In this document: one piece after another, positions 16,242-38,686 of the stretch
Layout: each line of letters begins with the position of its first letter
How positions within the stretch are numbered: the stretch's first letter is position 1
Notes under the pieces: generated by a model
The model's database searches: none
What the model was told of the DNA's origin: nothing
What the model saw: the letters and a program-made list of their open reading frames with translations, nothing else
Position numbers and translations under genes: made by a program
Virus record (IMG/VR): IMGVR_UViG_2698536640_000025
Reading direction: 5' to 3' (one strand)
DNA from: a virus
Lineage: Duplodnaviria; Heunggongvirae; Uroviricota; Caudoviricetes
Length of the DNA: 38,686 bases

Positions 16242-16292
16242 TAACAGGGCAAGATTAAGCCTCAGCAATACCGCCTGATACCAGCCCGCGTT

Positions 16293-16310
16293 GTCCCCGT
16301 CGCCATACAA
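16293..16310. promoter_or_regulatory. TGT-N12-ACA dyad (Ogr/Delta-type late-activator site) in the divergent P/O control region
   Basis: TGTccccgtcgccatACA read directly, about 80 nt upstream of the O start codon, consistent with a site centred near -55 of a late promoter. Confidence 0.5.
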
Positions 16311-19773: not shown

Positions 19774-19973
19774 TGAAAGTAATGGCTCTGGACGGTGACA
19801 CCGTCGATTTACTCTGTCAGCGCCATTACGGCACCACGCAGGGGGTGACTGAGGCGGTACTGGCCGCCAATCCGGGGATTTCAGCCGTCATGTTTCTGCA
19901 TGCCGGACAGGAAGTGGAGCTGCCGGAGCTGCAGGGGCAGACCCGGCGTGAAATGATCCAGTTGTGGGGGTGA
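19773..19973 (+). CDS. X: Tail protein X, P2 gpX family (66 aa)
   Basis: Internal ATG of track ORF 19704..19973; ATGA overlap with the L stop. Confidence 0.7.
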   Translation: MKVMALDGDTVDLLCQRHYGTTQGVTEAVLAANPGISAVMFLHAGQEVELPELQGQTRREMIQLWG

Positions 19974-19975
19974 GA

Positions 19976-20260
19976 ATGTTTCAGCGGCTTTGTGATCACA
20001 TCACGTTCTGGGCGTCAGTGACGACAGCCGGTATCGGCGTGATGACGCTGAGCGAAAAAATTGCCGTGGCCGGTTTTGTGCTGGGAACGCTGTCACTGCT
20101 TCGTGCCTGGCTTCACCGCCGCAGGATGGAGATCGCCCAGGCAAGGCGCAACGAACTGATTGAAAAAATCCTTATGCAGTCAGAAGGAAGGGAGCTGAAC
20201 GACGCAGAGCGCCGGGCAATGATGCTTCTGAAGCAGGATGAGCACGATGGCCGGACCTAA
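19976..20260 (+). CDS. Holin, probable pinholin type (two TM helices, 94 aa)
   Basis: GGGGTGAG RBS; TM segments ITFWASVTTAGIGVM and IAVAGFVLGTLSLLRAWL; immediately precedes a SAR endolysin. Confidence 0.6.
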   Translation: MFQRLCDHITFWASVTTAGIGVMTLSEKIAVAGFVLGTLSLLRAWLHRRRMEIAQARRNELIEKILMQSEGRELNDAERRAMMLLKQDEHDGRT

Positions 20261-20789
20261 GCGTTACGCCGTGGCCGCCATTGTGGCGCTGGGGATCTCC
20301 CTGGCTCCCGGAGAACTGAGAACCTCCCGCGAGGCACAAATCAAAATTGCCACATGGGAGGAGTGCCGGGCCCGACCCTACCGTGATCTGGTGGGGGTCG
20401 GTACGGTCGGATGCGGATCCACCGGTAACGTGGAAAACCGCCTGTACACACAGGAGGAAGTGGCCGGGCGGTGGATCAACGATATGCGCCGCGCTGAGAA
20501 CTGCATCACACAGAATTTCAGGGGGCAGCAGATGCCGCAGTCTGCATTCGAAGCCATGACGGACGCCGCCTTTAACCTGGGCTGCCGGAATCTGATGTGG
20601 TTTAAAAACAAAAACGGCACGCCGCAACGCACCACCATCTGGAAACACGCGCAGACACGGCAATGGCGCCTCATGTGTTACCGGCTGACAGATTTTGTGA
20701 ACAGTGGCGGAACGCGCACGCAGGGACTGGTTAACCGCCGGAATGATTTTAAGAACTGGTGCCTGAAAGACGCGGGAGCGCAGCCATGA
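20238..20789 (+). CDS. SAR (signal-anchor-release) endolysin, phage 21 R-like lysozyme
   Basis: N-terminal signal-anchor AVAAIVALGISLAP followed by an E...D...T catalytic context resembling P21 R. Confidence 0.8.
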   Translation: MSTMAGPKRYAVAAIVALGISLAPGELRTSREAQIKIATWEECRARPYRDLVGVGTVGCGSTGNVENRLYTQEEVAGRWINDMRRAENCITQNFRGQQMPQSAFEAMTDAAFNLGCRNLMWFKNKNGTPQRTTIWKHAQTRQWRLMCYRLTDFVNSGGTRTQGLVNRRNDFKNWCLKDAGAQP

Positions 20790-21211
20790 AACTGAACATT
20801 ATCCTTTGTGCGCTGCTGCTGACCATTTCGCTGCAGGCAATGGTGGTCATCCGGGCCTATCGCTCAGGTCAGGAGAGCACCCGTTATGAAGCGCTGGAAA
20901 AAGCCGTGAAAGAGAGCAATACGACCGTCCGGGAGTTGCTTAAGGCCACGGCGGAGACACAGTCAGCGCTGGCCGCTATCCGGCGCGAAGATCAGGAGCG
21001 TGCAGCCAGAGGGGAAGAACGACGTGAAACGATGCGGAAAAACTTACAGGCGGATGAGTGCGCACGCACTTCTCCCCCTGCTGATGTTGCTGACAGCCTG
21101 CAACAACACGCCAGCGCCGCTGAAAACCGGCGTCATTTGCGGGAGCGTGCCGGAAAGTCTGACCAGACAGACACCGGTACCGGTGCTGCCGCAACACATG
21201 ATATGGGCTGA
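20786..21211 (+). CDS. Inner-membrane spanin (Rz/LysB-like)
   Basis: N-terminal TM MKLNIILCALLLTISLQAMVVI then charged coiled-coil-like region; ATGA overlap with the endolysin stop. Confidence 0.7.
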   Translation: MKLNIILCALLLTISLQAMVVIRAYRSGQESTRYEALEKAVKESNTTVRELLKATAETQSALAAIRREDQERAARGEERRETMRKNLQADECARTSPPADVADSLQQHASAAENRRHLRERAGKSDQTDTGTGAAATHDMG

Positions 21212-21329
21212 TGTGGCTGACTGGGGAGACCGACTGGTAGATGCCCTGGACAGTTGTAATGCCGATAAAGCCGCCATTGCCGGGCTGGAGCGGCAGCGGA
21301 CAGCACGAATGAACACTCATGAAAAATAA
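21054..21329 (+). CDS. Outer-membrane lipoprotein spanin (Rz1/LysC-like), overlapping the Rz-like gene in another frame
   Basis: Lipobox LLTAC in MSAHALLPLLMLLTACNN; embedded/overlapping arrangement as in P2 lysB/lysC. Confidence 0.7.
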   Translation: MSAHALLPLLMLLTACNNTPAPLKTGVICGSVPESLTRQTPVPVLPQHMIWADVADWGDRLVDALDSCNADKAAIAGLERQRTARMNTHEK

Positions 21330-21339
21330 CGGAGTCACT

Positions 21340-23385
21340 ATGGTACCGAAACATTATCAGCTTGTGACGGCAATGACGAACAAGGAACTTGCCGAAAAAC
21401 TTGCGCCCATGCTCAGGGAAGGATGGGGACTTCTTGGGGGACCTGTCTCAGCATCAGAGCCGGGAGCACCATTTTACCTGATGCAGGCACTGGTCACTGA
21501 CAGAGACCTGCCATCAGCCATTCCGGTACCAGAAGGCGAGGAAAACCCCGTACCGGGCACTACCGACGGATACGACACTGGACACACAACTGAGCCAGAG
21601 TTTTATTATGTGGTGCCACTGGCTGGTCAGTCCAATGGCATGGCATACGGTGAGGGGCTGCCATTACCCGATACATTCGACAGTCCTGATCCACGAATTA
21701 AACAGTTAGCGCGTCGCAGTACGGTAACACCGGGCGGCGCTGCATGTACCTATAACGATATTATTCCGGCAGATCACTGTCTCCATGATGTACAGGATAT
21801 GAGCAGCCTTAATCATCCGAACGCCGATCTGTCAAAAGGTCAGTATGGCTGCGTCGGACAGGGTTTACATATTGCCAAAAAATTACTGGCGTTTATCCCG
21901 AAAAATGCAGGGATCCTCCTGGTACCTTGCTGTCGTGGAGGGTCAGCGCTTACTTCCGGCGCTGAGGGGGCATTCAGTGAATCTTCAGGAGCAACGGCCG
22001 AATCATCCCTGTGGGGCGTCGGCAAACCGCTGTATAACGATCTGCTTACCCGTACAAAAGCCGCGCTGGATAAAAACCCCAAAAACGTCCTGTTATCCGT
22101 GGTCTGGATGCTGGGAGAGTTTGATCTGAAATCAGCAACATACGCACAGCACCCGCAATTATTCCTGAACATGGTGAATCAGTTCCGCGCCGATCTCAGC
22201 GCATATGCTGCACAGTGCACCGGAGGCAACGCATCACTTGTTCCCTGGATTTGCGGCGATACCACCTATATCTGGAAACAACAATATACCTCTCAGTACC
22301 CGGTGGTTTACGGTGCATATCAGAACAAAGAAGCGCAAAAAATTTATTTTGTGCCCCTGATGACCGATGAGAAAGGTGCTAACACGCCAACAAACCTGCC
22401 TGCCGAAGATCCTGACCTGGCAGAAGCCGGTTATTACGGTGCTGCATCCCGTAGTAACGGAAACTGGACCTCTTCAGATCGCGCCACGCATTTCAGTTCA
22501 TGGGCCCGCCGCGGCATTATTTCTGACCGCCTGGCAACGGCGATCCTGATGCATGCCGGGAAGACCGTCGCCTTCCTGAAAGGTGCACCCGCACCGTTCA
22601 GCGTGGTCGCAGTACCTCCCGCCACGGCCGGTTCAGACAGCACCACCACGGAAAGCCCGCAGCCCTACACACCTGCACCTCAGCCGGGCGCAGGTACGCA
22701 GTCATCACCGGCAAGAACAACGGCCGTCGCTTATCGCGCAGACGCACAGGAAGGGAAACTGAAAGAACAGGGCTGGACAGGGGCAGATGGAAAAGCCTCC
22801 GTCGTAAATGACTCTGCTGCTGAGAGCGGTAAAGCCATGCGAGTGGAAAAAGTCCAGGGGCAACAAACAGCCTGGAAAATCGCCCACGATGTGCCTGCAA
22901 GTAAAGCAGCTGAATTACTTCAGAAAGGCGGGGAAATTGCCTTTCGTTTCAAAATCCCGGAAGGTGTTCAGCTGGCAGAAAACCGCTTCGCCATGGCTCT
23001 GCACTGGCCGGTTTCTCAGCTACCTGAAAACGTTGTTCTGGAAGGCAGCGCAGGAAACGATATGCTGGCCGCCTTCTTCATCCAGAGCGACAGCGCAAAC
23101 CTGAATCTGATGCAGCACAAACAACAGAATGCAAAACTGGGAACCTTCGGGGCATTTAATCATAACTGGCACAACGTGGTGTTCCGGTTTGCCGGAAATA
23201 ACAGCATCAGCGTGACACCGGTCATCAACGGTCAGACCCAGGCGGCCTTTAATCTGGCGAAATGCCCGGCGGCAGGACTGGATAACGACAAACTGCTGAT
23301 CACGGATATCACCAGTAACAAGGACACCTACCCCGTGCTGATTGAGTATGTGACGGTGGATATCAATAACAGCAACGCCGCATAA
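21340..23385 (+). CDS. Putative NanS-p-like sialate O-acetylesterase (DUF1737-like N-terminus, SGNH/SASA esterase domain, Pro/Thr-rich linker, C-terminal carbohydrate-binding-like domain); moron gene
   Basis: GQSNG block-I esterase motif (PLAGQSNGMAYGEG); N-terminal HYQLVTAMTNKELAEKLAPMLREGWGLLG; linker PPATAGSDSTTTESPQPYTPAPQP; GGAG RBS; occupies the gap between lysC and R that is empty in P2. Confidence 0.65.
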   Translation: MVPKHYQLVTAMTNKELAEKLAPMLREGWGLLGGPVSASEPGAPFYLMQALVTDRDLPSAIPVPEGEENPVPGTTDGYDTGHTTEPEFYYVVPLAGQSNGMAYGEGLPLPDTFDSPDPRIKQLARRSTVTPGGAACTYNDIIPADHCLHDVQDMSSLNHPNADLSKGQYGCVGQGLHIAKKLLAFIPKNAGILLVPCCRGGSALTSGAEGAFSESSGATAESSLWGVGKPLYNDLLTRTKAALDKNPKNVLLSVVWMLGEFDLKSATYAQHPQLFLNMVNQFRADLSAYAAQCTGGNASLVPWICGDTTYIWKQQYTSQYPVVYGAYQNKEAQKIYFVPLMTDEKGANTPTNLPAEDPDLAEAGYYGAASRSNGNWTSSDRATHFSSWARRGIISDRLATAILMHAGKTVAFLKGAPAPFSVVAVPPATAGSDSTTTESPQPYTPAPQPGAGTQSSPARTTAVAYRADAQEGKLKEQGWTGADGKASVVNDSAAESGKAMRVEKVQGQQTAWKIAHDVPASKAAELLQKGGEIAFRFKIPEGVQLAENRFAMALHWPVSQLPENVVLEGSAGNDMLAAFFIQSDSANLNLMQHKQQNAKLGTFGAFNHNWHNVVFRFAGNNSISVTPVINGQTQAAFNLAKCPAAGLDNDKLLITDITSNKDTYPVLIEYVTVDINNSNAA

Positions 23386-23531
23386 GAAAAAAGAGGCTCC
23401 CGGCAGGCAAGACTGAGAGGAAAAGATACCTGACGGGAGCGCAAGAGGAATTATGGAGAGTGTTTATTATTGTTATTCATTTTTTTTAAAACGCCAGACA
23501 TCGTTATGTCAATCATTTGTGTGAGGTGATT

Positions 23532-23705
23532 ATGTTATTCATTCATCAGATCATGCTGTATTTCTGTACTGCCGTCTGCGCGCTGTATCTGATCAGCGGC
23601 GGTTACAGTGTTATCAGAAATTATTTTCAGCGAAAAATTGACGAGCGCGCCGCTGAAAAAATCAGTCAGAAGTCTGCACAACAGAACAACCAGAACATGC
23701 CATAA
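23532..23705 (+). CDS. Small membrane protein (57 aa, one TM helix)
   Basis: GAGGTGA RBS; MLFIHQIMLYFCTAVCALYLISGGYSVI hydrophobic N-terminus; AT-rich upstream region. Confidence 0.4.
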   Translation: MLFIHQIMLYFCTAVCALYLISGGYSVIRNYFQRKIDERAAEKISQKSAQQNNQNMP

Positions 23706-23720
23706 CACACAGGAGGGGGC

Positions 23721-24188
23721 ATGCTGAAAATTAACACCCTGCGCGACGCCATGACTGACGCCTGCCCATGGTGTCGCGCCAACCCGGAGAAATTCACTGT
23801 GTATGTGAATAACGGAGGCATTGAGACGACCGGCGAATCCCCCTCATATCTTTACCGTTACACGCTTGGGATCTTTGTCATGGACTTCACGCAGGATCTC
23901 GATGAACTGATGGTGCCGCTGATGCGCTGGCTGTACCGCAATCAGCCTGATCTCCTGCTTAATCCGGAGAAAAACAGGGATATCAAATTTTCTGTTGCCA
24001 TCAATGACGACGACAGCACCGATATCCTGCTGGAAATCCCGGTATGGGAGCGGGTGATTATCCGCCGTAATGATGATGGCACTGTTCACGCAGAACACAT
24101 CGGAGAGCCGCCTGTCAGCCGGGCCCTGGAAGCATGGCGCGTCACCCTCGAAGATGTCACATGGGGTCAGAATGATGGCTCCGGATGA
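23721..24188 (+). CDS. R: Tail completion protein, P2 gpR family
   Basis: 155 aa; C-terminal HIGEPPVSRALEAWRVTLEDVTWG resembles P2 gpR. Confidence 0.8.
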   Translation: MLKINTLRDAMTDACPWCRANPEKFTVYVNNGGIETTGESPSYLYRYTLGIFVMDFTQDLDELMVPLMRWLYRNQPDLLLNPEKNRDIKFSVAINDDDSTDILLEIPVWERVIIRRNDDGTVHAEHIGEPPVSRALEAWRVTLEDVTWGQNDGSG

Positions 24189-24816
24189 CCTGCACAGACT
24201 GGACGGTCTCTTTCAGGAGATCCTCAGTGGTCTGTCCGCTGCCGGTATAAACAAAACAGCACGTGCTGTCGGTCAGGCTGTCCGCGCCGCGCAACAAAAG
24301 CGTATACGTTCGCAACAATCACCGGACGGTAACCGGTGGCCAGCCCGTAAAAAACGTGTATTCCGTGTCCAGGCAGGTGTGGTGTTCATCTGGAACGGCA
24401 CTCAGGTGAGACGACTGAAAAACTGGCGGACAACAACCGGCCGGTACGGCCCCATGATCACCGGTTACGACACGGAGCGCCGGGGAATACGCTCGTTCCA
24501 CAAAGCCGATATTGAAGAATACCTGGAAATTGACACCCGCAGGCGAACGCAGAGCGCCATTAAGCGTCCACCCATGTTTGAGCAGCTTCGGACAAACCGC
24601 TTTCTGAAGGTAAAAACCGATCCCGGCGGCGTCAGCGTGGGATTTGAAGGCCGCGCAGCCCGCATTGCCCGCGTTCATCAGTTCGGCGAAGTGTCACTGG
24701 TCTCTGCCGGTAATGCCGTCCGCTATCCGCAACGCGAACTGCTGGGATTCAGTGAAGCCGACAGACAGAAAGTGACGGAAATCATTATCAACAACCTGTG
24801 GAGAAACACCCGTTGA
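24172..24816 (+). CDS. S: Tail completion / virion morphogenesis protein, P2 gpS family
   Basis: Start MMAPDDLHRLDG overlapping the R stop; longer than P2 gpS (about 214 aa). Confidence 0.75.
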   Translation: MMAPDDLHRLDGLFQEILSGLSAAGINKTARAVGQAVRAAQQKRIRSQQSPDGNRWPARKKRVFRVQAGVVFIWNGTQVRRLKNWRTTTGRYGPMITGYDTERRGIRSFHKADIEEYLEIDTRRRTQSAIKRPPMFEQLRTNRFLKVKTDPGGVSVGFEGRAARIARVHQFGEVSLVSAGNAVRYPQRELLGFSEADRQKVTEIIINNLWRNTR

Positions 24817-29204: not shown

Positions 29205-29696
29205 TCACAACATGAGACCAGACAGCGCAGAGGACGCCGACGACAGGGCCGACGACGCGCTGTTTTTTAATCCTGCCATCAGATCACCCACCGAGCCCGA
29301 CTGAAGACGCTCACGCAGATCTTCATTGCATCGCTGAAAGCTGACAGTGAACTCAATTTTGCGGGCCATGCCATAGCGATCCAGCTCCTGACGGGTGGTC
29401 CTGATTTCCGTAATGACATACATCCCGTAAATCTGTCCGACACCATCAATCAGTGGCCAGGGTAATCCTGTGTAGGCCAGGGTGTTCAGGGCAGTCAGTG
29501 ACACCTCCCCGCCGGTGATTTCCGGACAGAGCACACCGGACATCGTGATGTGATCTTCACCAGAGCCAATATACTGCCAGGAGGATGAACGGTTAACCCG
29601 TTCATTACTGACGTGTCGCCAGCGTTTACTCTGTTCCACCTGCTGATGCGGCAGGGTACTTAACTGAAACACAAACATCCCATAAATCATCATCAT
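29205..29696 (-). CDS. U: Tail protein, P2 gpU family
   Basis: Track ORF 29205..29741; internal ATG start (MMMIYGMFVFQLSTLP) matching the P2 gpU N-terminus. Confidence 0.75.
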   Translation of the reverse strand: MMMIYGMFVFQLSTLPHQQVEQSKRWRHVSNERVNRSSSWQYIGSGEDHITMSGVLCPEITGGEVSLTALNTLAYTGLPWPLIDGVGQIYGMYVITEIRTTRQELDRYGMARKIEFTVSFQRCNEDLRERLQSGSVGDLMAGLKNSASSALSSASSALSGLML

Positions 29697-29706
29697 CTTT
29701 TTCACC

Positions 29707-32535
29707 TCAGTCGCGATCGCGGAAGCTGCCGGTTCCGGCACGTGCCATTCTGTTCATTTCCGCCCTGACAGCGTCACCAACCATGCGCGCCAGTTCCCGG
29801 GGATTATGCGAACTCACCCCGTGAAGATGCACATGTATCTCCCCCTGAAAGGCGCTGGCGAAGGTTTCCTGCTGGTGCATTCGTGGCGCCGGGCGTGCCG
29901 TCGGCCATTGCTGCACCTGAATCTCCTCCTGTGGCAGCGCGCGCATTCCGCCGGAAGACGGCGCAACGACAGGTTCATGCCACTGCCCCCGGACCGCCAG
30001 CGCCCGTGGAAGATGTTTAAACACAATATCTCCGGGTCCGATACGTTTACGGTTTTCAGCCAGCAGACCACCGGTATTCCCCTCAATGCCTTTCAGGTGA
30101 CGGAGAACGTTACGGTTACCGTCCGGCGCTATCCCCGCAGGGAGCGCCACCGGCGGAGGCTGTGTACCGGAGGCGCCGGAAGGCACACTGGCCCCACCAG
30201 GAGGCGACCAGTGCCACGCCTTCTGAACCATTTTTTTCTGTTCCGGATCCCACTCCCATGCCACCGGCGTTTTACGGGCCTCATCCAGTTTTCGCTTAAC
30301 CCGCTCAGCTTCACCGGGCAGAACACCGAGTTTTTCCAGCACCCACGCCAGACCGTCAATCAGAGCTTTCAGGGGCGAAAAAACCGTGGCTAACGCACCG
30401 GCCAGAGTACTCCCGAACATCTGCCCGGCAGAGGTGCACTGCTCAAGCAAATCACGCGTGGAGGAGACCGGCGTTAACAGGGATTTAAACCATCCCAGAA
30501 TACGGGACAGTGCCCCTGAAACCAGATCCAGCAGCGGCGCAAAACGGGAGGCTGTCGCCATGAAGGGCGCCAGTGCTGACTGTACCCCTTCAATAAATCC
30601 GCTCACAAACGCCCTGACCCGATCCCAGTAGCGCCAGATCAGCAGAGCACCACCGACCAGGGCTCCCACCGCCACCACAACCGGCCAGGTCAGCGCCCCC
30701 AGCGCAGCCCCCACGGCTGAAATCACACCCGTCAGTCCGCCAAACAGCGTACCGGCAACAGAGAGTCCGGCCGGGATCGCGCGAAGCAGGGCAAGCCCCA
30801 GACGCAGTTTCAGTAACGGTGCGACAACCATCCAGGCCGCAACGGACAACGCCCCCATCGCTGTGGTTAACGCCAGCACCGCTCCCGTCGTCAGCGCAAT
30901 CATTCGCACCAGTTCCGGATGCGCATTCACCCACGCCTGCAGACGCTCACCCCACGCTGTGGCCATCCGGACAAGCCCACGCAGATCGTCCGTAATCTCC
31001 CCGATAATCCCACTTCTCAGCGCGCTGAACGTCCCGGTAAGCCGCGCCACATCACCACTCAGATTGTCACGCAGGGTTTGCCCCATCCGGTCCGCCACAC
31101 CAGACACGTCAGCCATACGGTCAGACACCCGCGCCAGCGCGCCAAGAAAGGCAGGGATTTGATCGACAGACAGATCTTCAACCGGTGTACCAAAAAGTGC
31201 GATGGCCGCATTGGCCCGCTCAGCCGGATCGACGATCTGCAACAGACCCGAGGCTGTTTTCTGCAGCGCAGCCCGTGCAGCCGTTCCACCACTGGCTACA
31301 GCCGATGACATCCTGGCTGCATCCAGCCCGATAAGCGCATACGCTTCAGCACTCGCCTTTGACATATCGGAGCCGCGAATACTGAACTCCTTGATGGCAT
31401 CGCCGGTTTTATCCAGCGCAAACTTCCCCTGCTGCGCCATATCCGCAAGGAGCGTCATGGTTTCCGACCCTGTCAGCCCCATGTTACGAAAATGGGTCGA
31501 ATACTCGTGAAGGATCTCAGGCAGCTCATCGCGCATAACCGGCCCCATGCGCTGCATGCCCGCCACCATCAGATCAACCGCCTCGTCACTGCTGCGTGCA
31601 AGACCGTTTTTGATCATGATGGCAGCCGCCTGAATGTGCTGCGGGATATCGCCCCCCATCACGGCCTGCATATCCAGCATTTTTCGGGTGATTCGGGTCA
31701 GTTCATTCTCACTAACCGCCCCCAGCCCACCCAGAGTGGAGCGGACAGCACCCACAGCTTCAGCCGCCAGTTGTGCATCCGGTGTGATACCGGTATGAAC
31801 CATGTGGTTTATAACCCCGGTATACCCCACGGCATCTGACGCGCCCTCTCCTGCCTGAGCCGCAATGACGGCACCATGACGCTGGAGATCCATCACCGGC
31901 GCAACAGCACGCCCGCCAGCGTAAAGTCCTGCTGCACCGGCAGCCAGTGCCGCCGCACCGGCATTACGTATCCGCCCGAGTCGCTCCTGCGCCTGTTCAT
32001 AGCGTTGCTGTGCACGGGTCACCTGTGCGAGCGCCTGCCGCTGTCGCGCCAGCTCTTCGTTATACTCTGCCGTCCGGCGAATGGCTGCCTGTATGGTCTG
32101 ACTGCTGCCCTCTGCGGCAATACCGTGTCTCTCCAGCTCCCGGCGTGAATCCTCCAGGCGTCGCTGATGTACATCCCTCACCCGGTTCAGACGTTCAAGC
32201 CGGGTGGTCAGCGAAGCCATCATTTCACGCTGCCGTTCACTGAGCACGGTACCCTCACGCTCCGCCTGCTGCAGACGGTTCAGTTGCTGCTGAACAGCGG
32301 CAATTTTCCGGGTGGCTTCGTCAAATTTAGTCTGTGCCGCAGCAAAGGCTTCACTCTGCCGTTCAAGCGAGCGGATGGAGTCCTGAGTTTCACGGAGGGA
32401 ATCAGAAAGCGCGCCCACGGTTTCGCGGGCGCGCCTGAGAGGTTGTGTCAGGGTGTCTGCCGCCGCCAGAGCAACCCTGATATGCAGATTATTCATCATG
32501 ATTGTGACTTCCGCTTCTGGCAGCCGCCCGCTCAC
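29707..32535 (-). CDS. T: Tail tape measure protein, P2 gpT family
   Basis: 942 aa; coiled-coil N-terminal region and Gly/Ala-rich hydrophobic central segments; GTG start. Confidence 0.85.
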   Translation of the reverse strand: MSGRLPEAEVTIMMNNLHIRVALAAADTLTQPLRRARETVGALSDSLRETQDSIRSLERQSEAFAAAQTKFDEATRKIAAVQQQLNRLQQAEREGTVLSERQREMMASLTTRLERLNRVRDVHQRRLEDSRRELERHGIAAEGSSQTIQAAIRRTAEYNEELARQRQALAQVTRAQQRYEQAQERLGRIRNAGAAALAAGAAGLYAGGRAVAPVMDLQRHGAVIAAQAGEGASDAVGYTGVINHMVHTGITPDAQLAAEAVGAVRSTLGGLGAVSENELTRITRKMLDMQAVMGGDIPQHIQAAAIMIKNGLARSSDEAVDLMVAGMQRMGPVMRDELPEILHEYSTHFRNMGLTGSETMTLLADMAQQGKFALDKTGDAIKEFSIRGSDMSKASAEAYALIGLDAARMSSAVASGGTAARAALQKTASGLLQIVDPAERANAAIALFGTPVEDLSVDQIPAFLGALARVSDRMADVSGVADRMGQTLRDNLSGDVARLTGTFSALRSGIIGEITDDLRGLVRMATAWGERLQAWVNAHPELVRMIALTTGAVLALTTAMGALSVAAWMVVAPLLKLRLGLALLRAIPAGLSVAGTLFGGLTGVISAVGAALGALTWPVVVAVGALVGGALLIWRYWDRVRAFVSGFIEGVQSALAPFMATASRFAPLLDLVSGALSRILGWFKSLLTPVSSTRDLLEQCTSAGQMFGSTLAGALATVFSPLKALIDGLAWVLEKLGVLPGEAERVKRKLDEARKTPVAWEWDPEQKKMVQKAWHWSPPGGASVPSGASGTQPPPVALPAGIAPDGNRNVLRHLKGIEGNTGGLLAENRKRIGPGDIVFKHLPRALAVRGQWHEPVVAPSSGGMRALPQEEIQVQQWPTARPAPRMHQQETFASAFQGEIHVHLHGVSSHNPRELARMVGDAVRAEMNRMARAGTGSFRDRD

Positions 32536-32704
32536 GCCAGGCGACCACCTCTGCAGGCGTCATTGCAAATATCTCTGCGGGCGGCCAGTTAAAAATAACA
32601 GCAATATCCGCAACGGGATCTTCAATACAGTCAAAGCAAAGACAGGTTACGGCTCTGCCGTGTTCTCCGGTGCCGGTGCATTCGACCCCGAGGGTGCGAA
32701 AAAA
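32495..32704 (-). other. Programmed -1 frameshift extension (E' / gpE+E') with slippery heptamer TTTTTTC at about 32698..32704
   Basis: The -1 frame after the slippery site stays open for about 68 codons and ends overlapping the T start, as in P2 E/E'. Confidence 0.5.
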
Positions 32705-33036
32705 TTAACCGCCGCCGAGCTCAGCGCCGTAAAATCCGCCGTATTCATGGCATACATTTCGGCCTCCTTAAGTTTTGGCTCTGTCACACGCGCAAGCCAG
32801 GTGACCATGGCATCACAGTTCATGTTGTAAAGCGCAAGCAAAGACAGCCCACGCAGCGATCCGGCCTGATTCGCCAGCGGTCCGATTTTAATTTCACTGT
32901 ACGACACATCTCCGCGCACAACAGGCACCGTCAGCTTCACCACGTTCTTAGGTGCAGCCGTAGCGGCAACCGCCACCGCGGAAGCCTCCCCGTTACTGAC
33001 GGCAGTGTCAGTGGTCATTTCCGTTTCTTTATCCAT
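32647..33036 (-). CDS. E: Tail assembly chaperone, P2 gpE family
   Basis: 129 aa; GGAG RBS; sits between tube FII and tape measure T; contains the frameshift site near its 3' end. Confidence 0.7.
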   Translation of the reverse strand: MDKETEMTTDTAVSNGEASAVAVAATAAPKNVVKLTVPVVRGDVSYSEIKIGPLANQAGSLRGLSLLALYNMNCDAMVTWLARVTEPKLKEAEMYAMNTADFTALSSAAVNFFAPSGSNAPAPENTAEP

Positions 33037-33083
33037 TTTCAGTCTCCACGGCTGGATCCCCGCCGTTCTCTGTTAAACAATAA

Positions 33084-33593
33084 TCAGAAGCCCAGCATCG
33101 AGCGGGTGCGATCCGGCAGCACATCCTTACCGTCAATGCGCCAGATAAAATTCAGCACATCAAATTCGATTTTTTCCCGATCATCCACGCTCAGTCTGTA
33201 CCAGGTGTTTTTCATCGAATAACTGTGCTCAGTGTCTTCACCCTGCTTCGCCTCCCCCATATCGATTTCAGTGATGCGCCCGCGGACCTCAATATCCACA
33301 TATCTGATATCCGCATCCGAATAGTACTCACCGGAAAAGCGAAGACGGACTTCATCAAGTGACCCGGCATAACGGGAGAAAAGGTGGGCATCTGCGCCGC
33401 CTACCGCAAAAGAGAGATCCAGTGCACCATCATCAAGACCAAAGTCGACGGAAACACTGCCGGGCATCCCGGCACCACGGAAGGACTCCGTTTTTCGGGT
33501 CAGTTTAGGCGGCGTGAAGGACGTCACCCGCCCCAGCTTGTTTTCGCCATCGATGTACACCGTGAAAACGCGAAGTTTGTTTGGTACCGCCAT
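33084..33593 (-). CDS. FII: Tail tube protein, P2 gpFII family
   Basis: 169 aa; immediately downstream of sheath gene FI. Confidence 0.85.
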   Translation of the reverse strand: MAVPNKLRVFTVYIDGENKLGRVTSFTPPKLTRKTESFRGAGMPGSVSVDFGLDDGALDLSFAVGGADAHLFSRYAGSLDEVRLRFSGEYYSDADIRYVDIEVRGRITEIDMGEAKQGEDTEHSYSMKNTWYRLSVDDREKIEFDVLNFIWRIDGKDVLPDRTRSMLGF

Positions 33594-34789
33594 TACTCAC
33601 CTCCCAGTGATGCAAATGCACCGTCAAAGAACTCATCAGTAAACGTCTGGTGAAGCTCCAGATCTTCAAGCGGTGGTACCGGCGTATATCTGTAGCGGAT
33701 CCGCACAATCCCCTGACGCAGATCCGTTGTGCCGTTATCCACCACGTCATACCAGCACTCTGCCCCGATAAGTTTACCCGCTGTCACAAGGGCACTCAGT
33801 TTTGCCCGGATATCGCTTAACACATCCTTCACGTTCGACGGCGTCAGCGGCTTGTCCACGGTTTCAAACTGCGATTCGGCGATGGTATCCGCCAGCGACT
33901 GCGCCGTACGCGTGTAGGTCTCAAAGGTGTAGGTAGTGGTGTCGAGAGTCCGGTTACCCCAGAAACGGAAGCCGTTACGTTTAATGAGTGTGGTGATCTC
34001 CTTGTCATTGAGGGTTTCCGCGTCACTGTCCTCTGCCTGGAGCGACCAGAACACCGGCACAGAAATACCCAGGACATTATTCACTGCCACATTGGACAGG
34101 GATTTATGCCAGCCCTGCTCGTGGTCAATCTTCGCACGCAACCCGCACGCATACGCAGATGCAGGAAAAGCCTCATTCTGGCCACTGTTAGGGTTGTACG
34201 CGATAAAATCAGGCCAGATCAGCATAACTTCACGGTGAGCAAGATCGGCGCGCCAGGTGACAGCCTCCTGCACGGTATTACAGCCGGGACAGCCCGCATA
34301 CACAAAGGCACGCAGCTTTTTCGCGACGGTTACCAGTGCCGCCACCACCTCTTTGGTGTCAAGCGATGGCACAGCCAGGATCCTGGGACGAACACCAACA
34401 GCCTCATTCTGTTCAGCCACCAGGAGCGCCTGCATGCCTGTATAGGTTCCGTCATTTTTGACCTCACCAATAACAAGCTGCGTTTGTGTCGGCTGACCAT
34501 CCCCCTCCTTCGCAGCAGCAACCCGCACCACAACAACTCTGGTGCTGACCTGATCGGCAATAGCTTTCAGACTTTTGTACAGCGTGCCGGTTTTCCCGGC
34601 CTTACCCAGCACATCCATAACGCGCGTCAGGAGCACCGGCTTATCCAGCGGAAATGTTTTTGCATCAGCATCATCAGCAACAGCCACGATACCAATCACA
34701 CTGGAGTCAATATCATTAATGGCCGTGACCAGATCCGCATTCTCCCGGACCCGCACGCCATGGAAACGGGTTTCAGCCATATTATTCAC
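33593..34789 (-). CDS. FI: Contractile tail sheath protein, P2 gpFI family
   Basis: 398 aa; strong similarity to P2 FI (LRAKIDHEQGWHKSLSNV, GFRFWGNRT, YTPVPPLEDL). Confidence 0.9.
   Translation of the reverse strand: MNNMAETRFHGVRVRENADLVTAINDIDSSVIGIVAVADDADAKTFPLDKPVLLTRVMDVLGKAGKTGTLYKSLKAIADQVSTRVVVVRVAAAKEGDGQPTQTQLVIGEVKNDGTYTGMQALLVAEQNEAVGVRPRILAVPSLDTKEVVAALVTVAKKLRAFVYAGCPGCNTVQEAVTWRADLAHREVMLIWPDFIAYNPNSGQNEAFPASAYACGLRAKIDHEQGWHKSLSNVAVNNVLGISVPVFWSLQAEDSDAETLNDKEITTLIKRNGFRFWGNRTLDTTTYTFETYTRTAQSLADTIAESQFETVDKPLTPSNVKDVLSDIRAKLSALVTAGKLIGAECWYDVVDNGTTDLRQGIVRIRYRYTPVPPLEDLELHQTFTDEFFDGAFASLGGE

Positions 34790-37393: not shown

Positions 37394-38686
<1,293 letters not shown>

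Follow-up and report, generated by a model that had tools for sequence, protein, structure and literature searches.

The window, by which we mean the whole of a 38,686-nucleotide (nt) stretch of Caudoviricetes DNA (IMG/VR record IMGVR_UViG_2698536640_000025), is an intact-looking P2-family prophage located between dmsA and serS, and its late region carries nanS-p, a plus-strand gene for a predicted sialate O-acetylesterase of the NanS-p type. The late genes are ordered as GPO scaffold, P2-type major capsid protein, gpM, gpL, X, holin, lysozyme, LysB (DUF2570) and LysC, followed by nanS-p, a DUF1378 gene, gpR, gpS, V, W, J and I, and the capsid, lysis and tail genes identified bear out the P2-type backbone recognised by a first-pass annotation of this DNA. 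That annotation had placed an insertion between the lysis cassette and the tail completion genes, which holds for the lysC/gpR slot, but it had missed the DUF1378 gene (23532-23705); positions 21340-23705 form a two-gene cassette of nanS-p and DUF1378. To judge from its domain matches, the nanS-p product is a full-length member of the NanS-p family, a known family and not a new kind of protein, and comparisons among prophages indicate that the gene is a recurrent and old late-operon feature of at least three P2-like lineages of Escherichia coli.

The nanS-p/DUF1378 cassette

The cassette and its two neighbours comprise the following features (lengths of products in amino acids, aa):

21340-23385, plus strand: nanS-p coding sequence, 681 aa (an in-frame alternative ATG at 21319 would give 688 aa), called from the open reading frame, GGAG, RefSeq and PHROG_143
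23386-23531, plus strand: AT-rich spacer between nanS-p and DUF1378, GC fraction 0.40, carried with the cassette (matches lambdoid loci at 46-49 of 50 positions per block)
23532-23705, plus strand: DUF1378 gene, 57 aa, one predicted hydrophobic helix (PF07125, E 2.7e-27)
21120-21329, plus strand: lysC (Rz1-like o-spanin), left neighbour and last backbone gene before the cassette (Pfam LysC, E 4.6e-7; RefSeq agrees)
23721-24188, plus strand: gpR tail completion gene, right neighbour (Pfam P2_Phage_GpR, E 5.7e-40)

The plus-strand open reading frame runs uninterrupted over 21319-23385 and encodes 688 aa when counted from its first ATG. This codon lies inside lysC, the stop codon of which is at 21327-21329, and no Shine-Dalgarno sequence precedes it, whereas the ATG at 21340 follows a GGAG (21331-21334) at a spacing of 5 nt and gives 681 aa, the length called by RefSeq in a chromosome record that is 99.9% identical. 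The start of nanS-p is therefore likely to be ATG 21340 and not ATG 21319. A length of 681 aa had been proposed together with the coordinates 21319-23385; the length fits a start at 21340, but the start coordinate was 21 nt too far upstream. The protein matched PHROG_143 over its full length (E 1.3e-294) and had no match in NCBIfam.

In P2, lysC and R overlap with no gene between them, as the first-pass annotation had stated, and the O operon spans O through S. The nearest deposited phages (Enterobacter phiT5282H, Klebsiella Kp48xx and P88-like phages) are only 65-70% identical at the nucleotide level and have 550-670 nt between the lysozyme gene and R, which leaves room for lysB and lysC only. 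Homology detected by blastn to related Peduoviridae resumes at the gpR start (23720/23721; query 335/336), and the extra DNA relative to those phages comprises 21330-23720, approximately 2.4 kb with two genes. GC content falls from 0.565-0.57 in the backbone flanks to 0.55 in the DUF1737-encoding part of nanS-p and 0.53 in the body of the gene, and to 0.40-0.43 in the spacer and the DUF1378 gene (DUF1378, 0.43). An imperfect 11-bp hairpin (CTCCCGGCAGG ... CCTGACGGGAG) is present at approximately 23396-23440 in the spacer; it is conserved with lambdoid loci, and its folding energy was not significant (z = -1.27).

Domain architecture and catalytic residues

The protein was divided into three domains and two linkers, in which the predicted catalytic codons could be placed by alignment:

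21349-21498, plus strand: DUF1737 domain of a P2-lineage subtype with the motif ..TAMT..EL..GW.L.G...EPG.P(F/W)YLMQA (PF08410)
21499-21588, plus strand: first interdomain linker, acidic, Pro-rich and predicted to be disordered (predicted local distance difference test (pLDDT) scores of 27-29 for residues 51-80 in an AlphaFold2 (AF2) model; 20% identity to lambdoid alleles)
21589-22551, plus strand: NanS-like SGNH type II/SASA esterase domain (3PT5, E 5.8e-119; Pfam SASA)
21628-21633, plus strand: codons CAG TCC for the predicted oxyanion-hole Gln and nucleophile Ser of the GQSNG motif, Q97 and S98 in 681-aa numbering (NanS Gln18 and Ser19 in the 3PT5 alignment)
22489-22491, plus strand: codon CAT for the predicted catalytic His, H384 in 681-aa numbering (THFSSWARRG; NanS His301 in the 3PT5 alignment)
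22552-22716, plus strand: second linker, rich in Pro, Thr and Ser, approximately residues 412-466 (direct reading; AF2 pLDDT about 26-47 for residues 410-459)
22717-23367, plus strand: C-terminal lectin-like jelly-roll domain (DUF6645), a putative carbohydrate-binding module (6YP6, Pfam and AF2)

Three Pfam domains were detected, namely DUF1737 (PF08410; residues 11-60, E 1.9e-7, bit score 31.3 with a cut-off of 24), SASA (residues 170-294, E 2.1e-9, bit score 37.8 with a cut-off of 24.8) and DUF6645 (PF20350; residues 534-650, E 9.2e-40). A sequence search of the PDB aligned NanS/YjhS (3PT5) over residues 91-411 (E 5.8e-119) and the C-terminal domain of a NanS-p protein (6YP6) over residues 467-683 (E 9.1e-60); residue positions of the Pfam and PDB matches are in 688-aa numbering where this is stated, as it is for 3PT5. 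The scores of the PDB and PHROG matches are far beyond chance. A domain search had been named as the check on SASA/SGNH homology, and the SASA and 3PT5 matches supply it; Pfam, PHROG_143, 3PT5 and 6YP6 agree with the original assignment to NanS-p-type sialate O-acetylesterases with DUF1737, SASA, linker and beta-rich C-terminal parts. Altogether, 1,562 homologues were found at E <= 1e-10, almost all of which come from E. coli or Shigella and share the three-domain make-up, and the 90%-identity cluster of the protein has 744 member sequences.

The AF2 model was built from a 14-sequence alignment and is of moderate overall confidence (mean pLDDT 62), with a confident, all-beta C-terminal domain (pLDDT 78-92) and disordered linkers; part of the Pro/Thr/Ser-rich second linker had pLDDT below 30. 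The C-terminal domain of NanS-p has been described as a lectin-like jelly roll and proposed to bind carbohydrate (PMC8065619). No hydrophobic signal sequence was present at the N-terminus of the nanS-p protein. The second linker holds the sequence QSSPA, which resembles the SSP motifs proposed as autoprocessing sites in gp84 of phage phi24B (bioRxiv 10.64898/2026.04.10.717836), a resemblance only.

The GQSNG motif previously assigned to the SGNH/SASA esterase block is present at 21625-21639. The enzyme is predicted to be active because Q97, S98 and H384 align with the corresponding NanS residues and none of the three varied in two alignments, one of 13 and one of 14 diverse homologues. Catalysis by NanS has been attributed to Ser19 and His301, with an oxyanion hole made up of Gln18 and a Gly and no catalytic Asp (PMC9063846). 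The Ser/His/Asp triad proposed earlier as a check on catalysis is accordingly an unsuitable one for this family: the conserved Ser and His were found as anticipated, and the Asp was the wrong residue to ask for in an enzyme with a Ser-His dyad. The NanS-p alleles of strains EDL933 and O104:H4 are active esterases on 5-N-acetyl-9-O-acetylneuraminic acid (Neu5,9Ac2), de-O-acetylate mucin glycans and allow growth on Neu5,9Ac2, and the substrates demonstrated for the family in the literature are only sialic acids and mucin glycans (PMC8065619). Activity on Neu5,9Ac2 is predicted for the P2-type allele as well.

Distribution and mosaic structure

Of 5,426 complete E. coli genomes, 12 had the exact arrangement of the window, with identities of 98.8-99.9%, and none had the backbone without the cassette, all 12 of 12 with the backbone having kept the gene. 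For the N-terminal 85 aa, the best-matching proteins were from Peduoviridae phages vB_EcoM-705R2 and vB_EcoM-569R5 and a P88-like prophage of sequence type 131 (ST131; 50%), and not from phages encoding Shiga toxin (Stx). In vB_EcoM-705R2, 569R5 and E. coli JJ1886, a 625-aa DUF1737-SASA-DUF6645 protein is encoded from the end of lysC, with gpR directly next, and this P88-like lysB-lysC-nanS-p junction was present at a coverage of at least 80% in 375 of the 5,426 complete genomes (approximately 7%). In a third lineage, L007 (from a Logan assembly), 14 kb are collinear with the window at 81% nucleotide identity, and nanS-p and DUF1378 occupy the same place. The gene had been called unusual in a P2-type backbone, a description that does not fit its occurrence in the P88-like and window lineages and in the sister L007. 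A scan of one genome per species, by pattern match only, found no P2-type allele outside E. coli; its hits were alleles of the lambdoid type (Escherichia sp. and E. albertii) and NanS-like genes with a single domain (Proteus and a metagenome-assembled genome). RefSeq already has entries for the genes, with generic names, for example 'DUF6645 domain-containing protein'.

Identity to the window protein differed among the parts of the gene, depending on the lineage compared:

L007 (sister P2-like): DUF1737 89%, esterase 85%, C-terminal domain 72%, backbone proteins 75-93%
JJ1886 (P88-like): DUF1737 49%, esterase 71%, C-terminal domain 30%, backbone proteins 49-64%
L092 (lambdoid): DUF1737 38%, esterase 98%, C-terminal domain 97%, backbone not applicable
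phi24B (lambdoid): DUF1737 36%, esterase 72%, C-terminal domain 48%, backbone not applicable
21591-23590, plus strand: 2.0-kb patch common to lambdoid nanS-p/DUF1378 alleles (96.95% to L092; 94.1% to L002, CP027586)

Relative to L092, the patch contains only 4 mismatches within 21727-22880 (1.15 kb; 99.7% identity), and its homology ends abruptly on both sides, in the first esterase-domain codons and approximately 60 nt into DUF1378. Identity to the L092 allele is only about 38% across the N-terminal 84 aa, and the first 250 nt of nanS-p had no nucleotide match in E. coli beyond the 12 genomes. Past 23590, the window again resembles the P2-like sister L007. The DUF1378 gene is itself chimeric, its first approximately 60 nt lying in the patch shared with L092 and the rest being nearest to L007 (94% in 23560-23659).

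The simplest reading of these comparisons is that the P2 lineage already held its own nanS-p and DUF1378 genes, that the 2.0-kb patch was recently exchanged with a lambdoid allele by homologous recombination, and that the points of crossover coincided with the limits of homology; no selection need be invoked to account for where the left crossover lies. The cassette has co-diverged in the sister lineage and the DUF1737 part tracks the backbone across three P2 lineages, which indicates that the gene is old in this backbone and that the DUF1737 module co-diverges with it in the long term. As to direction, the body of the gene diverges from L007 about as much as the backbone does, and the evidence therefore leans towards vertical descent in the P2 lineage with export from P2-like to lambdoid phages, although similar types of C-terminal domain are widespread in lambdoids. 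Treating nanS-p as an acquired accessory gene, as had been done, overlooked its mosaic nature, in which the N-terminal module is P2-specific and the body is shared with lambdoids.

In lambdoid loci (CP027586 (L002), phi24B (L006) and L092) the gene order is Q (stx) ... nanS-p, DUF1378, DUF826, holin, endolysin, Rz, and nanS-p followed by DUF1378 (DUF826, holin) was seen in nearly all of 80 lambdoid IMG/VR loci, in agreement with the published position downstream of Q/stx and upstream of the lysis genes (PMC10462455). The first-pass annotation had the order reversed in placing the nanS-p genes of lambdoid prophages of enterohaemorrhagic E. coli (EHEC) just after the lysis genes. In the window, nanS-p does not occupy the canonical lambdoid position after Q/stx and before the holin gene but follows the spanin genes, and the DUF1378 gene downstream of it is a footprint of the lambdoid arrangement. 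The NanS-p proteins of Stx and other lambdoid prophages (933W L0105/z1466/933Wp42; phi24B vb_24B_21, i.e. gp84) have the same three domains and catalytic residues as the window protein (esterase and C-terminal identities to phi24B as listed above), and in both settings a DUF1378 gene comes next and the gene lies in a late transcription unit. They differ from it in that the carrier here is a P2-family, myovirus-type prophage, the slot lies after the spanins and before tail completion, there is no DUF826 neighbour, and the DUF1737 domain is of a distinct subtype (36-38% identity) with a longer loop and EPG at the position of phi24B Tyr42.

Chromosomal NanS (YjhS, 3PT5) shares the SGNH type II fold family and the conserved Gln-Ser and His, but is a single-domain chain of 337 residues in a host sialic-acid regulon, whereas the phage-borne window protein adds DUF1737, the lectin-like domain and long linkers. 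The P88-like nanS-p (E. coli JJ1886/ST131; vB_EcoM-705R2, 569R5) has the same slot (lysC, nanS-p, gpR) and the P2-type DUF1737 signature, and differs by having no DUF1378 gene, an M15 endolysin instead of the lysozyme and no recent lambdoid patch. P2 itself also has slots in which accessory genes are flanked by conserved genes of the late or structural set (orf30 between S and V; Z/fun; tin/old), but there the cargo is transcribed in units of its own, frequently from the opposite strand (orf30, fun(Z)), whereas the window cassette points the same way as its neighbours, is closely packed and apparently belongs to the late operon. The papers found discuss NanS-p only as an accessory of Stx and other EHEC prophages, and a literature search found no paper linking NanS-p to P2-like phages; here, the same enzyme family is a stable gene of the presumed late operon in at least three P2-like lineages, one of them in approximately 7% of complete E. 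coli genomes including ST131, with a body exchanged between P2-like and lambdoid phages almost base for base and a lineage-specific DUF1737 module.

Expression, proposed role and alternatives

A crude consensus scan of 19900-24300 found no sigma-70-like promoter on the plus strand, and the only terminator-like site on that strand was a weak one at 20727-20741 inside the lysozyme gene, with none flanking the cassette; promoter and terminator totals on both strands were no higher than in shuffled sequence. The gap between the lysC stop and the nanS-p start is 10 nt and contains the GGAG, and in the P88-like lineage (JJ1886) the nanS-p start overlaps lysC. As no promoter or terminator of its own was found and the gene is tightly packed on lysC, nanS-p is probably co-transcribed with the late operon and is not a classic moron. 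The term moron had been applied to it earlier; the gene is indeed inserted between genes that are adjacent in relatives, but the promoter and terminator that the strict sense of the word calls for did not turn up in the crude scan. A search for TGT-N12-ACA, the site of the P2 late activator, gave 9 sites against 9.3 expected by chance, none of them near the cassette. The sole plausibly placed site was a dyad at 16292-16309, in the intergenic region between the divergent terminase and gpO genes and approximately 75-90 nt upstream of where gpO starts, and an ogr/Delta-like gene is present in the prophage.

In the working model, induction would lead to transcription of nanS-p together with the late genes through the prophage's own Ogr/Delta-type activator, and the protein would accumulate in the cytoplasm. 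Having no hydrophobic N-terminus, it should leave the cell only at lysis, which would be brought about by the upstream holin, lysozyme and spanin genes. Outside, it would remove 9-O-acetyl groups from Neu5,9Ac2, whether carried by mucin glycans or present as free sialic acid, and the lectin-like domain would assist in glycan binding; surviving lysogens could thereby use the sialic acid. We consider this model, taken as a whole (a late-operon cassette that is old in the P2 lineage and encodes a sialate esterase released at lysis), to be well supported and likely. In a further step, the N-terminal DUF1737 domain may dock the enzyme on capsid hexamers and so display it on the virion. This step is drawn only from a preprint on phi24B by electron cryo-microscopy, in which gp84, the NanS-p of that phage, was an abundant virion protein, full length on fresh particles and later processed, and its DUF1737 domain (residues 2-57) formed a hexamer in the central pore of the hexons of a T=9 shell, with Tyr42 as an anchor (bioRxiv 10.64898/2026.04.10.717836). 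By analogy, docking in the P2-type phage is conceivable, its chances being somewhat short of even.

More speculatively, DUF1737 might be a modular, capsid-specific dock, of which the P2-type subtype would attach an esterase and lectin payload to P2-type capsids, the payload being traded between phage families and the anchor kept; we put this forward tentatively and with more doubt than confidence. Among the 80 lambdoid loci, four DUF1737 subtypes were distinguished, and some loci instead had an unrelated module of approximately 110 aa on the same enzyme body. This unrelated N-terminal module (MSDSKWKMLSAMPGEF...; L050:3545-3880, also in L052, L054, L059-L071 and others) had no Pfam match. Such N-terminal modularity is compatible with an adaptor role without being proof of it. 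A possible tracking of head type by DUF1737 subtype among lambdoid phages was also considered: subtype B occurred with a phi24B-type terminase/portal module in 2 of 2 cases and subtypes C and D with one module in 7 of 7, in a comparison of 80 IMG/VR loci whose 10-kb flanks rarely reach the capsid gene. The correlation was only partial and was not relied on.

Several points weigh against parts of this interpretation. A weak or non-sigma-70 lysogen promoter could escape a crude consensus search such as the one used, and esterase activity is known from EHEC alleles only. The commonest lambdoid subtype, A, occurred with three terminase/portal modules, and subtype and head type are accordingly not related one-to-one. 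The Tyr42 column of phi24B is occupied by Pro in the window protein, within an EPG that is invariant in three P2-type sequences, and the P2-type anchor loop is 2 residues longer than that of phi24B, with the aromatic residues F45 and Y46 nearby; retargeting to another capsid would, however, also show itself as a changed anchor loop. In the AF2 model, the N-terminal domain has a strand (6-11), a helix (14-26) and a strand (45-50) at low confidence (pLDDT 43-64). P2 forms a T=7 shell, in which there is no hexon on a 3-fold axis. The DUF1737 fold of capsid-decoration proteins consists of one helix and three antiparallel strands, and the phi24B domain binds only the hexons on the 3-fold axes of its T=9 shell (bioRxiv 10.64898/2026.04.10.717836).

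An alternative is that nanS-p is a classic lysogenic-conversion moron, recently acquired and autonomously expressed in the lysogen, which would give the host the use of O-acetylated sialic acids from mucin and have no role in the particle or the lytic cycle. Its location between genes that are adjacent or overlapping in P2 and the nearest relatives would fit this, as would the dip in GC (about 0.57 for the backbone, 0.53 for the body, 0.40-0.43 for spacer and DUF1378), the 97% identity of the body to a lambdoid allele, which shows horizontal transfer, and the growth of EHEC on Neu5,9Ac2 that NanS-p alleles confer (PMC8065619). Autonomous expression is hard to reconcile, however, with the lack of promoter-like or terminator-like sites of its own on the plus strand and with a start 10 nt past the lysC stop, or overlapping lysC in the P88-like lineage, and expression of nanS-p homologues rises on induction or under inducing conditions (PMC10462455). 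Recent acquisition is at odds with a cassette that has co-diverged in the sister at 81% nucleotide identity and a DUF1737 module that tracks the backbone in three P2 lineages, and a protein with no signal peptide could not reach an extracellular substrate without lysis. We regard this alternative as decidedly unlikely. A fate as a non-functional passenger, i.e. a decaying remnant of recombination between co-resident prophages that is under no selection, could be suggested by the recombinant patchwork of the gene and by other cargo in the prophage (hok/gef and toxin-antitoxin-like genes), yet the 681-codon frame is intact with all catalytic residues present, the 90%-identity cluster numbers 744 sequences, 12 of 12 complete genomes with the backbone keep the gene at 98.8-99.9%, and intact orthologues exist in two further P2-like lineages; the probability of this explanation is very small.

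The esterase and lectin could also be displayed on the virion for the benefit of infection or release, acting on O-acetylated glycans of the bacterial surface (O-antigen, capsule or another acetylated polysaccharide) or on mucus and aiding adsorption, penetration or escape. The abundance of full-length gp84 in fresh phi24B virions (bioRxiv 10.64898/2026.04.10.717836) and the suggestion of O-antigen deacetylation as a possible role (PMC8065619) speak for such a function, and the gene lies among structural and lysis genes, is kept in three P2-like lineages and joins at least five DUF1737 subtypes and a non-DUF1737 module to the same body, as expected of an adaptor to different particles. Nevertheless, the only substrates demonstrated for the family are sialic acids and mucin glycans (PMC8065619), the NanS-p of P2-like phages is known from gene sequences alone, the phi24B anchor Tyr is not conserved here, and P2 and many relatives do without the gene, which is thus not essential for infection; on balance this explanation seems unlikely. 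We favour the working model of a late-operon sialate esterase released at lysis. The lineage-specific DUF1737 module, taken together with the report on the phi24B anchor, yields the testable prediction that P2-like virions display a mucus-directed esterase; if it is true, P2-like myoviruses, including a prophage common in pandemic ST131, would carry a mucin-directed esterase on their heads.

Elsewhere in the late region, gpS and gpV overlap at 24813-24816, with no terminator, orf30-type gene or V promoter between them, whereas in P2 the interval between S and V contains a terminator, an activator site and orf30 in the opposite orientation; the O and V operons appear to be fused in this phage. 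The FI..U tail block (gpU-like, tape measure, E/E', tube and sheath) is on the minus strand (29205-34789), with V-W-J-I-H and gpD/ogr on the plus strand, and is inverted relative to P2, where FI-FII-E-T-U-D are co-oriented with V..G. The early region differs in length between the window and the 99.9% identical relative, and other cargo annotated in that relative includes a ParE-like toxin, a TumE-family toxin-antitoxin pair, a DNA adenine methylase and a 3'-5' exonuclease. Two toxin genes of the Hok/Gef family are located between ogr and serS, at the right-hand end of the prophage (L001:37542-37682 and 38014-38154; approximately 36.5-37.2 kb in the window).

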